From an uncultured Anaerolineae bacterium (GTDB lineage Bacteria > Chloroflexota > Anaerolineae > JAFGEY01): a stretch of 29,417 nucleotides of DNA. Of the stretch, positions 5,635 through 26,920 are shown piece after piece. A program made the translations under genes and the position numbers. Below the pieces are notes generated by a model that made no database searches, had not been told where the DNA came from, and saw only the letters and a program-made list of their open reading frames with translations. The first letter of the stretch is position 1. Every line of letters starts with the position of its first letter. Location: assembly GCA_964481205.1 (NCBI GenBank), contig CAYZYE010000011.1, positions 12,788 to 42,204 on the forward strand, read 5' to 3'.

Positions 5635-6078
5635 ATGCAAGAAACACCGGTTACGAGTTTGGCGGTTTGTGGCGGCGCCATTTTGTGCCTGGGGCTGATC
5701 GTCCTGGTCATCGTCGGCGGCGTTGTCTTTTTCCTGGCGCGCCGCAAGAAACAGCCGCTGCCGGCCGCGCGACCCGCATCTCCGGCGCGGCCGGCCCCGC
5801 CGCCCGGCAAACCCGATTTCCCGCTGGGCGACAACATTGTTACCGACGCCGACATCAAGACCATCGACGATCTGGAGCATTATTATCCCCTGCCGCCTGG
5901 ATTCGAGTACCGGGTTACGGCCGCAGGCGTGCCGCAGGTGGTCCGCTCGCGCGACGGCCATGTTTACAACCGGTTTGTGATCGAGGCGGACATGATGACC
6001 TTTGACGAGCCGTACACCAGGTCCGACGGCCGGATTGGCTACCAGACGACCGAGGTGATCAAGATCACGGCGCGCTAG
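5635..6078 (+). CDS. Hypothetical membrane-anchored protein (one N-terminal TM helix, Pro-rich linker, ~80-aa C-terminal domain)
   Basis: 147-aa ORF with AAAGGAG RBS. Hydrophobic N-terminal segment then APAPPPGKP linker. No family recognised. Confidence 0.7.
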   Translation: MQETPVTSLAVCGGAILCLGLIVLVIVGGVVFFLARRKKQPLPAARPASPARPAPPPGKPDFPLGDNIVTDADIKTIDDLEHYYPLPPGFEYRVTAAGVPQVVRSRDGHVYNRFVIEADMMTFDEPYTRSDGRIGYQTTEVIKITAR

Positions 6079-6084
6079 TCAGGG

Positions 6085-6204
6085 CTGTTCAATTCTACAA
6101 TCCAGCGGTTGAAACCGCGTCTGGCGAGCCGTTGGCTGGTCGTCCCCCTACGGCGACGAGGCCCCGCCAGCGGTGACCTTGGTCACAAATTAGAATTGAA
6201 CAGC
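6085..6204. repeat. 120-bp element bounded by perfect 14-bp inverted repeats (GCTGTTCAATTCTA / TAGAATTGAACAGC), with internal small palindromes. MITE-like or structured-RNA-like.
   Basis: Inverted repeats read directly; 16/17 match if extended. Internal GTGACC-TT-GGTCAC (6172-6185). The 12-bp palindrome CTGGCGCGCCAG (6206-6217) abuts it. The element lies in the 5' region of the sulfatase-like gene. Confidence 0.4.
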
Positions 6205-6251
6205 TCTGGCGCGCCAGTCGAGATCGGTTCAACCTTGATTTGGGGGAATGT

Positions 6252-24800: not shown

Positions 24801-24947
24801 GCGTTCGATCACTGTTTGCGGCGTGATCTGGGCGCCGCCGCTCCAGGTGCCGGGCCATTGATCGTCGCTGGCCTGCCACATCGCAACCAATCGGGCAGCG
24901 TCCTGGTTGATGTTTTTGATTTCACGGATGACAAATTCAGTGTTCAC
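21801..24947 (-). CDS. GNAT-family N-acetyltransferase fused to a ~880-aa uncharacterised beta-rich C-terminal region
   Basis: The GNAT motif (VGYVELLNVQPDYQGKSLARQLL...FKQLTLHTWPGN) lies in the first ~170 aa. The remainder has no recognisable family and no signal peptide. The GTG at 24947 with AGAGGA 5 nt upstream is preferred; the track start at 25028 runs through a terminator hairpin. Confidence 0.8.
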   Translation of the reverse strand: MNTEFVIREIKNINQDAARLVAMWQASDDQWPGTWSGGAQITPQTVIERFERGRNLFVYVVETADRAKIVGYCSFSECEDDPGVGYVELLNVQPDYQGKSLARQLLCRCIDRCIELGFKQLTLHTWPGNLKSVPLYKKTGLYWVPDSSVHMRNFVPGILTMPCAGPYFEKHDWYKTFQRKLEQKEDDERWEGMQVFTYRWQAGDDMLTVWVDRQSRTITAVETNNLAAAAIVDETEPARGLTTQMRWKLTNKTNKPMRVSLIANGSEHLSIEHRQALTIQPGESAEATAPVGIAADAPGIQPGKPAPVVKTLFIIDGEVIELATGLHPRPAISVELAPRYVTLFPGVAQNVHLQLHNYIKREITATVSIAPTPGLVTDWTQKQITVPKKGWAGAPITLSAAQGGVYEIQTTIHFDDAGAPHRTQPRPLVVFSLPPGSVLAHRENAGQIEPKVRIENEWTRLIIESRGWMQIRAANGDASLGGAREFLGPPFWPSELEDKTFDVALERENGRITATLSVASDDYPGITLRRQVTLSAGPLIEIGYALINNGVTPYTLQMQPFFQIAQRDEATLTLPLDAGIVQSRMSEFPTAEEDVSKTPEAFAEHWAATTSQHGTIGLLWPDTVVENELGHWGMLLLWPKTNCEPQTWTPFGTFYLYAGPGDWRTVRAHSRRLTGANVKPEPIPVESRAVHDARLEPSPLITLDDQIKATLIIDNLRARPLIGQAILSLPQGVDGDHGAFEIKGATLREPFTQPLKLTVPPTAMAYEGHVSLQTQLFDDHIAVPIVRLGDHSEVQVFTNQNTWIIDNGRTRWTIAPDFAGAVISWQENGTNHLLSPYPEPKTFGWMNNWYGGLMPLARLRREMPGKLWQEKLAAQNIAATDARGVNWTGVRLSCTLEREKLAGLAIDLDYLTVGHSNVLKLVYRLHNLTTARRSLGYGWQTYWQPDGEWRHNVVRSEFVERKPTPWDSWSEAGRWGLATNAESGRTAILVSPYPDVRLVDWGDAGGHLGLLGELDVRPQRVAERVCYLGLCDNVQQARRYTCLKDYTS

Positions 24948-25001
24948 GTTTTCCTCTTTCTGGACTAGTTGGACGCAGTTTGAGCAAACCGCGCTGGCAT
25001 G

Positions 25002-25034
25002 AAAAAAAGGCCGTGGGGATGATCCCACGGCCTT
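25002..25034 (-). terminator. Strong intrinsic terminator T1 (11-bp stem AAGGCCGUGGG/CCCACGGCCUU, 6-nt loop, seven U) 54 nt upstream of the GNAT-fusion start
   Basis: Read directly from the minus strand. Confidence 0.75.
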
Positions 25035-25074
25035 AAAATTGACTCGGTGCTTTCACTCGATCCACGATCGAGCG

Positions 25075-25105
25075 AAAAGGCCGTGGAGTGTTGTGTCCCA
25101 CGGCC
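25075..25105 (-). terminator. Weaker terminator-like hairpin T2 (8-bp stem GGCCGUGG/CCACGGCC, 11-nt loop, UUUUCG) whose arms are identical to those of T1
   Basis: Read directly. The shared arms allow a T2-3'arm : T1-5'arm antiterminator pairing. A 7-bp hairpin (25056-25072) lies between T2 and T1. Confidence 0.5.
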
Positions 25106-25144
25106 CGTTGATAATGATCTAGATGTCAACTTTGGTTGACATAA

Positions 25145-25228
25145 CTACCAGCGACCAGGCACACGACACCTATTTGATTGACGATCGCGACCACATTTAA
25201 CGCGACAGATCATAAAGATGTCTTGCAT
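25145..25228 (-). CDS. Putative 27-aa Cys/Arg-rich leader peptide MQDIFMICRVKCGRDRQSNRCRVPGRW
   Basis: Hand-translated. Not in the ORF track. Strong RBS AAGGAGG with a 7-nt spacer. The stop is followed after 2 nt by an 8-bp/4-nt-loop hairpin (AUGUCAAC-CAAA-GUUGACAU), then T2 and T1. Confidence 0.45.
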   Translation of the reverse strand: MQDIFMICRVKCGRDRQSNRCRVPGRW

Positions 25229-25267
25229 CTGGCATCCTCCTTGTTGTATTTGCACTGCCAGTGAACT

Positions 25268-25295
25268 ATTATATTCCAAGATGCCCGTTTGTCAA
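25268..25295 (-). promoter_or_regulatory. Consensus sigma70 promoter TTGACA-N16-TATAAT
   Basis: Exact consensus hexamers on the minus strand (25295-25290 and 25273-25268). The predicted TSS is ~33 nt upstream of the leader ATG. Confidence 0.55.
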
Positions 25296-25525
25296 GTGCG
25301 GTTGGGGCGTCTTGGCATAGCCCCTTGTGGGCGGGTGAAGCAGCCGCTCCCGCCGGATCGCCAGGTCCGGCGGCTGAACAAGCTGAATCCGACCGGGGTT
25401 GCTATTTTGGGCCTGGATTTGGCAATCCAGGCCGAGCAAAGCGAGCGCCGGTACTATTGGCCTTTGTAGTTTTGGCGTCCGGCCAGTCGGTGGGTCTGTC
25501 TGGCGCCACCGTAAACAGGCGGCGC

Positions 25526-25873
25526 TTATTCTGTGTTATGAACAAAGACGCCGCGTTTGTTGAGGATGGCGACAATGCCGTCGATGACCACATCGACGAT
25601 GAATTTGAGCGCCTGTTTTTCAATCATCGCCGGCAGGTAGGGAATGTCAATATCGTACTCGTCGTACACGGCCAAAATGATCTCGGTGGCGCACGCTTTT
25701 TTCTGCGCTCCGCCTTTGATCGCTTGCATATCTTCAACGGCTTGAATGGCTTCGTCAAACAGTTCAAACATGACGCTCCAGTCAAAGCCTTCCTTAAAGA
25801 CTTTGATCCTGGGCGCGATGTCGCGGACAAAAGTGTTGGTCAGTTCCTGGCATGGCGTTCTGGCTTCTTGCAT
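25526..25873 (-). CDS. Hypothetical small alpha-helical protein (115 aa)
   Basis: ORF with a perfect AGGAGG RBS before the ATG at 25873 (track start 25900). No family recognised. Confidence 0.65.
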   Translation of the reverse strand: MQEARTPCQELTNTFVRDIAPRIKVFKEGFDWSVMFELFDEAIQAVEDMQAIKGGAQKKACATEIILAVYDEYDIDIPYLPAMIEKQALKFIVDVVIDGIVAILNKRGVFVHNTE

Positions 25874-25975
25874 TTTTTGCCTCCTGGAGAATGTCCTCAA
25901 TCGACGGGTTGGTGGGTGAACAAGTGGGTTATGGACATTATAACATACGACAGATGATTGTGCAATGGTCGTTTC

Positions 25976-26716: not shown

Positions 26717-26920
26717 CCTCGTGTTTTTCTATCTGTTCGGATCGATGCCTGTAGCCAAAAATTATGGTACAGGACGAATTGTAACGTGTATTATACTCGG
26801 GGCTGCACGGGCTGTCAAATTCGATATGCGCCGAACCTTGCGCCAAATGCAAGGATGAGTACAATAGTAAATGCTGGGGCCGCAATCTGTTTGATTTCAA
26901 GGCAAAGGTAGGCAAGTGTG

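Follow-up and report, generated by a model that had tools for sequence, protein, structure and literature searches.

A conserved leader cassette with two same-armed terminators before a GNAT-fusion gene in Anaerolineae: a candidate ribosome-dependent attenuator

The 29.4-kb stretch of DNA analyzed here (the window), from an uncultured Anaerolineae bacterium, carries on its minus strand a gene for a 1048-aa GNAT-fusion protein. In front of this gene stands a compact unit, here called the cassette, which is composed of a strong promoter, a short leader open reading frame (ORF), and two terminator hairpins, T2 and T1, built from the same arms. The locus raises the question of what such a unit does: does it control the gene that follows it, and, if so, what would it respond to? 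Our answer, held at a probability of about 0.6, is that it serves the GNAT-fusion gene as a cis-acting transcription attenuator that depends on the ribosome; in it, six RNA segments (R1 to R6) behind a strong constitutive promoter would act as a relay. The segments, their complementarities, the covariation, the maintenance of the ORF, and the linkage to the gene come from sequence comparison and folding. The cassette is best read as a variant leader-peptide attenuator, combining a helix (P1) predicted to sequester the start codon with the six-segment relay. The topology is that of the 1:2, 2:3, and 3:4 pairings of the classical attenuator, lengthened by 4:5 and 5:6 pairings.

The cassette features lie within 25295-25000 on the minus strand of the window. 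In the direction of transcription, and with the gene at the end, they are as follows:

25295-25268, minus strand: promoter TTGACA-N16-TATAAT, a 12/12 consensus match
25242-25236, minus strand: Shine-Dalgarno (SD) sequence AAGGAGG of the leader ORF, with the ATG (25228) 7 nt further on
25233-25216, minus strand: R1, the 5' strand of helix P1, GCCAGAUGCAAGACAUCU, which holds the start codon (minimum-free-energy (MFE) fold, RNAalifold, and covariation)
25228-25145, minus strand: leader ORF of 27 codons and a stop, translated as MQDIFMICRVKCGRDRQSNRCRVPGRW
25192-25190, minus strand: Gly codon 13 (GGT), in frame, kept among lineages and located 25 nt ahead of R2
25171-25153, minus strand: R2 motif AGGUGUCGUGUGCCUGGUC, which makes up the 3' strand of P1 and can pair instead with the top and loop of T2
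25142-25123, minus strand: linker hairpin ATGTCAAC-CAAA-GTTGACAT (ATGUCAAC-CAAA-GUUGACAU), 8 bp, beginning 2 nt past the leader stop
25105-25075, minus strand: terminator hairpin T2, with 5' arm GGCCGUGG, loop GACACAACACU, and 3' arm CCACGGCC, then UUUU
25074-25054, minus strand: middle hairpin CGCUCGAUC-gug-GAUCGAGUG, between T2 and T1
25034-25000, minus strand: strong intrinsic terminator T1, AAGGCCGUGGG (R5) / CCCACGGCCUU (R6), and U7
24947-21801, minus strand: gene of the 1048-aa GNAT-fusion protein, GTG start, in which Pfam identifies a GNAT domain (residues 22-140) and an Ig-like domain

In T2, the octamer arms are GGCCGTGG at 25105-25098 and CCACGGCC at 25086-25079, with TTTT next. R3 comprises the upper part of the 5' arm together with the loop, and R4 is the 3' arm CCACGGCC. 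The T1 stem, AAGGCCGTGGG/CCCACGGCCTT, spans 25034-25007, with T7 after it. Four of the window's five copies of the octamer GGCCGTGG fall in these 100 nt, and the fold of the full leader has a z of -5.6 compared with dinucleotide shuffles. The window contains only two promoter sites with a 12/12 match, the one in the cassette and another at 26818; in those cassette sequences from other organisms that were read, a TTGACA -35 with a near-consensus -10 is likewise present.

The promoter, SD, 27-codon ORF, linker hairpin, T2, and T1 that a sequence-only reading of this DNA had described are all found, on the minus strand. Two of its measures change. The hairpin between T2 and T1, given there as 7 bp, has a core (CGCTCGATC-gtg-GATCGAGTG) of 9 bp, or up to 13 bp with G-U pairs, and the gap from T1 to the gene, given as 54 nt, measures 52 nt from the T-run and 59 nt from the T1 stem to the GTG start at 24947. 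Its view that the GNAT gene has no promoter of its own agrees with the promoter scan of the window, which found no sigma-70-like site between T1 and the gene.

Recurrence upstream of GNAT-fusion genes

The cassette is found in 19 sequences from about 14-15 lineages, all of them uncultured Anaerolineae; these are the window and 18 others, and several tests below use 18 sequences (the 18 complete cassettes). The recurrence of the whole unit in 18 further sequences of other organisms confirms, at the level of sequence, that the cassette lies far beyond chance. Loci fetched via the downstream protein, a route unbiased for the presence of the cassette, yielded eight lineages. Among these loci, the whole cassette is present in L001, L002 (identical to L010-12), L008, L009, L014, L015, L016, L017, L019, and L020, and absent in L013, L018, and L021, where the GNAT-fusion gene directly follows another gene. 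In addition, a DNA-pattern scan of JGI metagenomes for the motif and T2 gave 11 matches, 10 of them true cassettes and one a chance match in a coding region. A covariance model of P1 detects a single copy at each cassette locus and no other in the 212 kb searched. Conservation of the small ORF and the duplicated arms, with covariation, had been singled out earlier as a matter for comparative genomics; the ORF is kept in all 19 sequences and the two hairpins in the 18 complete cassettes, and covariation is present.

Of the 18 cassettes outside the window, 15 have a GNAT-fusion orthologue downstream; two contigs end too soon, and L028 differs. At every locus with downstream sequence, the cassette is co-oriented with the structural gene and situated upstream of it. 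In L028 (266-2668), a cassette of the type termed group B below, with three CCGUGG-type hairpins, precedes two other genes. One (540-1604) encodes a RIO1-family kinase and the other (1577-2668) a tandem-GNAT protein, whose homology to the 1048-aa fusion is limited to the GNAT fold. The occurrence in a second gene context indicates that the element is portable, and this context is a hint of a small regulon.

Rfam gives no match at the gathering score over the whole window, and at E<=10 only chance-level matches across 24900-25350; literature searches found no published description of the element. A known RNA family was rejected for lack of an Rfam match, and the lack of conserved structure inside P1 also speaks against a riboswitch. 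A dispersed repeat (REP/MITE-like) was likewise rejected, the GGCCGTGG arms being confined to the cassette in the window and the element being present in a single copy per locus.

A conserved motif, a start-codon helix, and a maintained frame

The most conserved block of the cassette is R2, located at the 3' end of the ORF, with the family consensus GGUGUAGUGYGCCUGGUC (core GUAGUGYGCCUGG). In most lineages its reading is CS(A/V)PG, in L019 it is EVCLC, and in L008 and L015 the block holds the stop TAG (GUG UAG). A block read in three frames is an RNA element and not a peptide, and the 'PGRW' end of the leader peptide, which the earlier reading had picked out, is thus a nucleotide motif. Immediately 3' of R2, an extension that includes the leader stop (GGUCGCCGGUGA; GGUCGCUGGUAG in the window, 25144-25156) is strongly conserved as well. 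A conserved pairing of the 5' untranslated region with this extension (GGUCGCCGGU) was rejected, being inconsistent across lineages, with no consistent partner found.

R2 pairs with R1 (family consensus CCAGAUGCGCUAC) to form helix P1, which joins the start-codon region to the motif over 13-16 bp. P1 is present in the MFE fold of the window and in 17 of the 18 full-leader MFE folds, is independently predicted by RNAalifold, and has a mean R1:R2 duplex energy of -21.6 kcal/mol. Of its positions, 94.7% are paired, with three compensatory pairs, one of which is the window's own U-A to G-C change, and the covariation score is reached by none of 500 shuffles; controls with a slid register fall to 21-48% paired. 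In group B (L022, L023, L028, and L029), P1 takes the shifted register CAGGCGCAU/GUGCGCCUG. This shift makes a single sequence-based alignment unusable, and per-sequence duplex energies and a covariance-model alignment were used instead. On the latter, which includes group B, P1 is 92.1% paired with four compensatory pairs, and again none of 500 shuffles reaches its score. Furthermore, P1 uses the SD-proximal GGCACAC in L019 and GUCAACA/UGUUGAC in L020. By this comparison, the structure of P1 is kept while its sequence and register change. Inside P1, RNAalifold and the alignment reveal no conserved structure or nucleotides.

The leader ORF is open in all 19 cassettes, with a length of 19-29 codons, and in each of them GGAGG or GGAGA is followed 4-9 nt later by ATG or GTG. 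Between the ATG and R2, the 19 cassettes hold no stop in frame 0, compared with 20 and 22 stops in frames +1 and +2, so the ORF is kept open by selection. Such maintenance, together with the SD, argues that the leader is translated. An in-frame GGN codon is situated 17-28 nt before R2 in 15 of 15 lineages, and in the other two frames in 2/15 and 3/15. The conserved Gly often stands within G-x-G or G-S-G, where the Ser codons derive from both families, AGY and UCY. In 11 of the 19 cassettes, the end of the leader stop falls 23 nt past the start of R2; in L008 and L015 the stop lies inside R2. In the close pairs L001/L009, L014/L031, and L017/L032, the leader changes, read by eye, are mostly non-synonymous. 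The sensing of Cys or Arg that had been considered for the window's peptide finds no counterpart among its relatives, as these residues are not conserved in other leaders. The absence of tandem identical codons, observed in the same reading, extends to the family, in which one to three Gly codons are conserved.

Other coding explanations were tried and rejected. A +1-frame peptide (GVVRLVAG) seemed conserved from three sequences with apparently synonymous changes; more sequences brought stops and frame changes, which place the conservation at the RNA level. An opposite-strand ORF (MSTLVDITTSDQAHDTY) is broken by a stop in L001 (read by eye). A ribosomally synthesized and post-translationally modified peptide precursor, processed by the neighboring B12-radical-SAM and GNAT genes, is contradicted by a radical SAM gene in only some loci, a poorly conserved peptide, and a C-terminus that shifts frame.

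Coupled terminators, the proposed relay, and its rivals

T1 with its U-run is present in 18 of the 18 complete cassettes. In the stems of T2 and T1, 92% of the positions are paired, and 14 of the 22 base pairs show compensatory changes; the T2 loops are conserved and the T1 loops are not. The two hairpins show parallel changes in their arms: both carry G>A in L016, and both are strand-swapped in L019 (215-285, with CCACGG...CCGUGG and not CCGUGG...CCACGG). The distance between T2 and T1 differs widely among lineages, from 7 to 62 nt, and the middle hairpin is therefore not a conserved part. The linker hairpin past the leader stop is present in the long-linker lineages (the window, L001, and L009; in a variant form in L008, L002, and L027) and absent in the short-linker lineages L014, L015, L017, and L020.

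Two further pairings connect these elements. R3 (GGCGCACUAC and variants) is complementary to R2, with a mean duplex energy of -16.9 kcal/mol vs. -8.3 for the equivalent T1 window; the complementarity to R2 is a property of the T2 loop and is not shared by the loop of T1. In 14 of 18 sequences, the R2:R3 duplex is better than shuffles (p<0.05). A triple co-change, of R2 (C>U), R3 (G>A), and R4 (C>U), is seen in L001 and L009. In L019, where the arms are swapped, the R2 window pairs best with the top-and-loop window of T1 (-20.7 kcal/mol). The R4:R5 helix, between the 3' arm of T2 and the 5' arm of T1, forms in all 18 sequences with a mean energy of -25.8 kcal/mol, compared with -23.2 for T2 and -20.5 for T1; it is 87% paired, five of its 11 pairs are compensatory, and its covariation score is reached by 1/500 shuffles. 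The possibility of this pairing, raised by the sequence-only reading, is therefore upheld. Its antiterminator geometry stands as far as the arm swap goes; a switch made from the arm swap alone does not, since P1 and R2:R3 are needed. Likewise, the interpretation as a cis-acting leader keeps its conserved short ORF and two terminator hairpins and loses the Cys/Arg and PGRW elements. Once the 5' half of the ORF is kept from pairing, sequential folding yields R2:R3 in 16 of 18 sequences.

From these pairings, we infer termination at T2 and T1, read-through into the gene, the direction in which the switch works, and the place of the stall. In the default OFF state, with no ribosome on the leader, P1 (R1:R2) would hide the leader AUG and lock R2. 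R3:R4 would then form T2 and R5:R6 would form T1, and transcription would end at T2 or, failing that, at T1. A ribosome that reaches the leader stop would cover R2, again leading to termination. In the ON state, a ribosome that has initiated and is lagging or stalled in mid-ORF would occupy R1 and leave R2 free. The Gly codons 17-28 nt before R2 (often Gly-Ser-Gly) would serve as the stall region, and with a Gly codon in the A site the leading edge of the ribosome would end just before R2. The free R2 could capture the emerging R3, releasing R4, which would pair with R5 because the arms of T2 and T1 are identical. R6 would thus remain single-stranded, both terminators would be disarmed, and RNA polymerase would enter the gene. 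The unusual conservation of R2, R3, R4, and R5 would be explained by the two partners that each possesses.

Our best guess for the signal is slowed elongation at Gly/Ser codons or general translation stress, the latter on the model of the toiL upstream ORF (PMC12121999). A wider proposal, which is conceivable and distinctly doubtful, is that the Gly-x-Gly/Gly-Ser-Gly codons or a nascent GxG peptide report the charging of Gly/Ser-tRNA or a ribosome-directed natural product. The three-tier relay (from P1 to R2:R3 to R4:R5), disarming two terminators at once, would then co-regulate the 1048-aa fusion and the RIO-kinase/tandem-GNAT operon in a shared acetylation-based stress response, as a new regulon-level sensor in Anaerolineae.

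Several points weigh against the ribosome-dependent attenuator. The leader has no run of identical regulatory codons, and apart from the few Gly codons its peptide evolves freely. The shuffle statistics, including those for P1, overstate the significance because the sequences are related. In L002, L014, and L031 the U-run after T2 is poor, and R2:R3 is weak in L014, L029, and L019. The percentage of R4:R5 paired is no better than in shuffles (49/500), and this complementarity is suggestive, not proven, because it is partly an automatic outcome of two similar hairpins. At intermediate transcript length, sequential folding lets the R4:R5 relay win in only 8 of 18 sequences. With the ribosome footprint imposed on the full transcript, T2 and T1 still form at equilibrium in most sequences, so the ON state would have to be kinetic, as in known attenuators. 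In L001, L008, and L009, moreover, the distance from T1 to the gene is 450-550 nt, a gap that holds further small ORFs and may contain a second promoter.

Three other explanations were weighed against the same data. If the sensor were not a ribosome, a small molecule, protein, or RNA would bind R2, P1, or the hairpin arms and shift the P1/T2/T1 equilibrium, the ORF being incidental or auxiliary. Such a sensor would suit the missing codon run, the gene of a roughly 120-aa protein that adjoins the cassette in several loci, and a P1 enclosing a domain of 40-60 nt, as the P1 of a riboswitch does. It would also suit sequences of R2 and the hairpin arms that are conserved far more than plain stems need, but this conservation, from R2 to R5, is accounted for by the two partners per segment. 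Riboswitch and T-box leaders resemble the cassette in the P1-like closing helix, the exclusive antiterminator and terminator, and the relay via an anti-antiterminator-type hairpin. However, the cassette has no conserved aptamer core or nucleotides inside P1, no Rfam match even at E<=10, and no specifier or T-box sequence, and it keeps an ORF in the 'aptamer' region. The maintained ORF and the frame-specific Gly are not required by a pure RNA or protein switch, and no candidate binding-protein gene is common to all loci; we regard a non-ribosome sensor as improbable.

It is also unlikely that the cassette is an independent small gene, namely a small RNA of about 150-250 nt and/or a micropeptide of 19-29 aa with its own double terminator, placed where it is by shared function or synteny. 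The perfect promoter, strong SD, ORF, and two terminators do make a complete transcription unit, 17 of 18 sequences have the stable OFF fold as their MFE structure, and the GNAT gene is distant, with small ORFs between, in the three loci with the wide gap. Nevertheless, the peptide is poorly conserved except for Gly, its C-terminus changes frame among lineages, the 52-nt gap of the window has no promoter-like site, and without exception, L028 included, the cassette shares the orientation of a gene that it directly precedes. Moreover, the R2:R3 and R4:R5 pairings would have no role in a plain terminator. Little probability is likewise given to a ribosome acting with the opposite logic, in which read-through reports successful or closely coupled leader translation, the terminating ribosome blocking T2, or in which P1 autoregulates leader translation with a fixed low read-through. 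The sequestered AUG and the fixed place of the stop in 11 of 19 cassettes agree with it, and in L014, L017, and L020 T2 starts so shortly past the stop (which lies inside R2 in L015) that the foot of T2 could be within range of a ribosome terminating there. In the long-linker lineages (the window, L001, L002, and L008), however, T2 lies about 40-50 nt past the stop, beyond a terminating ribosome, and the R2:R3 complementarity and the position of the Gly codon would be left unexplained. The attenuator released by a lagging or stalled ribosome is preferred to all three.

Known systems, the regulated gene, and its neighborhood

The cassette shares with the E. coli attenuators of the trpL/hisL/pheL type a strong promoter, a short SD-led ORF, overlapping 1:2/2:3/3:4 helices, an intrinsic terminator before the gene, and a stall place about 20 nt upstream of the segment to be left free. 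With respect to the defining traits of a leader-peptide attenuator, it possesses a maintained SD-led ORF and mutually exclusive helices, including a predicted intrinsic terminator, and lacks a cluster of cognate codons. Unlike that type, it has 1-3 Gly codons in place of a cognate run, its regulated gene is not amino-acid biosynthetic, its segment 1 holds the leader's own start codon, and its two identical-arm terminators are coupled by R4:R5, giving six segments and not four. The window also contains a leader that looks like a classical aromatic-amino-acid attenuator:

17835-17625, minus strand: Phe/Tyr leader cassette, TTGACA-17-TATCAT, with the ATG 7 nt past the -10 (leaderless-like)

Its ORF of 34 codons, MIENTQRTGHNNQFYFTYYSAPQGRLLCVGRSLV, has a Phe/Tyr run, in which FYFTYY is situated 21-36 nt before the 3' strand of the first helix. 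The leader comprises the helix GCACAACAA/UUGUUGUGC and the terminator GGACGUGGAGC..GCUCCACGUCC with U6, and it precedes the genes of prephenate dehydratase (pheA), DAHP synthase, and prephenate dehydrogenase (tyrA). A textbook Phe/Tyr attenuator in the same genome indicates that the organism uses ribosome-mediated attenuation.

The cassette is also akin to the ermC, cat, yxjB, and toiL leaders in its short upstream ORF (uORF); in those leaders, translation status, not amino-acid supply, remodels the downstream RNA, and the peptide is loosely constrained. The B. subtilis yxjB leader (PMC6851288) is counted here among the leader ORFs that sense translation stress or antibiotics. E. coli toiL, upstream of topAI-yjhQ, is presented in PMC12121999 as a uORF that responds to stalls at different positions and works via occlusion of the ribosome-binding site and Rho-dependent termination. 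Compared with toiL and with ermC, which acts by translational attenuation, the cassette would have two predicted intrinsic terminators as its read-out. In folding models, its geometry, with R2:R3 formed once the 5' half of the ORF is blocked, is compatible with a stall-sensing leader. The genes downstream of the cassette include GNAT enzymes and, in L028, a kinase; YjhQ of the toiL operon is a GNAT-family protein. NCBIfam, the PDB sequence search, and Foldseek lend no support to an identity of the GNAT fusion as a resistance enzyme.

If the proposed reading is true, the cassette is a covariation-supported cis-regulatory RNA family for the Chloroflexota, a phylum with almost no characterized gene regulation. 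What would make its mechanism unusual is that a single conserved motif can pair with either of two partners and that the terminators stand in series via identical arms, so that a single upstream decision would neutralize both of them, a relay logic that could serve synthetic biology. Meanwhile, the element marks GNAT fusions with beta-sandwich arrays, which also exist in archaea, and a bacterial RIO kinase. It suggests that the GNAT fusion and the RIO kinase are induced under a translation-linked condition, a first lead on both proteins.

In the AlphaFold (AF2) model of the GNAT fusion (pLDDT 89), the GNAT domain leads into a long array of beta-sandwich domains. About 50 orthologues with 48-68% identity occur in metagenomes. 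The NCBIfam matches of the GNAT domain are generic (RimI-like and ArsN1-like) and all below cut-off, and NCBIfam, the PDB sequence search, and Foldseek point to no specific function, giving generic GNAT or multi-Ig matches only. Full-length homologues with about 30% identity are present in archaea (Thermoplasmata, Methanomassiliicoccales, and Thermococci) and in Armatimonadota (L003-L007), which suggests a widespread uncharacterized family. In L003-L007, the covariance model gives no credible match to the cassette, only a weak one in L007 (E=0.44).

Small ORFs are recurrent between T1 and the gene. A second SD-led ORF of about 25-50 codons follows T1 in L002 (3886-4010), L014 (2431-2508), and L017 (2361-2508), and also in L031 and L032. 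It ends with ..RE and a stop, and its TGA overlaps the GNAT start (cGTGAGTGA), an overlap that suggests translational coupling. In L001, L008, and L009, an ORF of 72-86 aa is situated between T1 and the gene; the window has none.

Upstream of the cassette, the second consensus promoter of the window (TTGACA-17-TATAAT, 26818-26790, minus strand) precedes the genes of an MBL-fold hydrolase (26716-25976) and a 124-aa protein (25900-25526). No obvious terminator is present between this operon and the cassette, and a hairpin at about 25409-25432 has no U-run. A conserved gene for a protein of ~120 aa lies directly upstream of the cassette in several, not all, loci (window 25526-25900, minus strand; L001 2879-3241; L009 1339-1704); the sole match of this protein is weak and sub-threshold, to Phage_holin_6_1. 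Further upstream, L001, L009, and L014 carry a B12-binding radical SAM gene and the gene of a 228-238-aa protein. Elsewhere in the window, at 6063-6225, a 35-nt inverted repeat with 77% complementarity and arms 93 nt apart, with no Rfam match, is located in the intergenic region upstream of a 483-aa gene whose start is near 6240.

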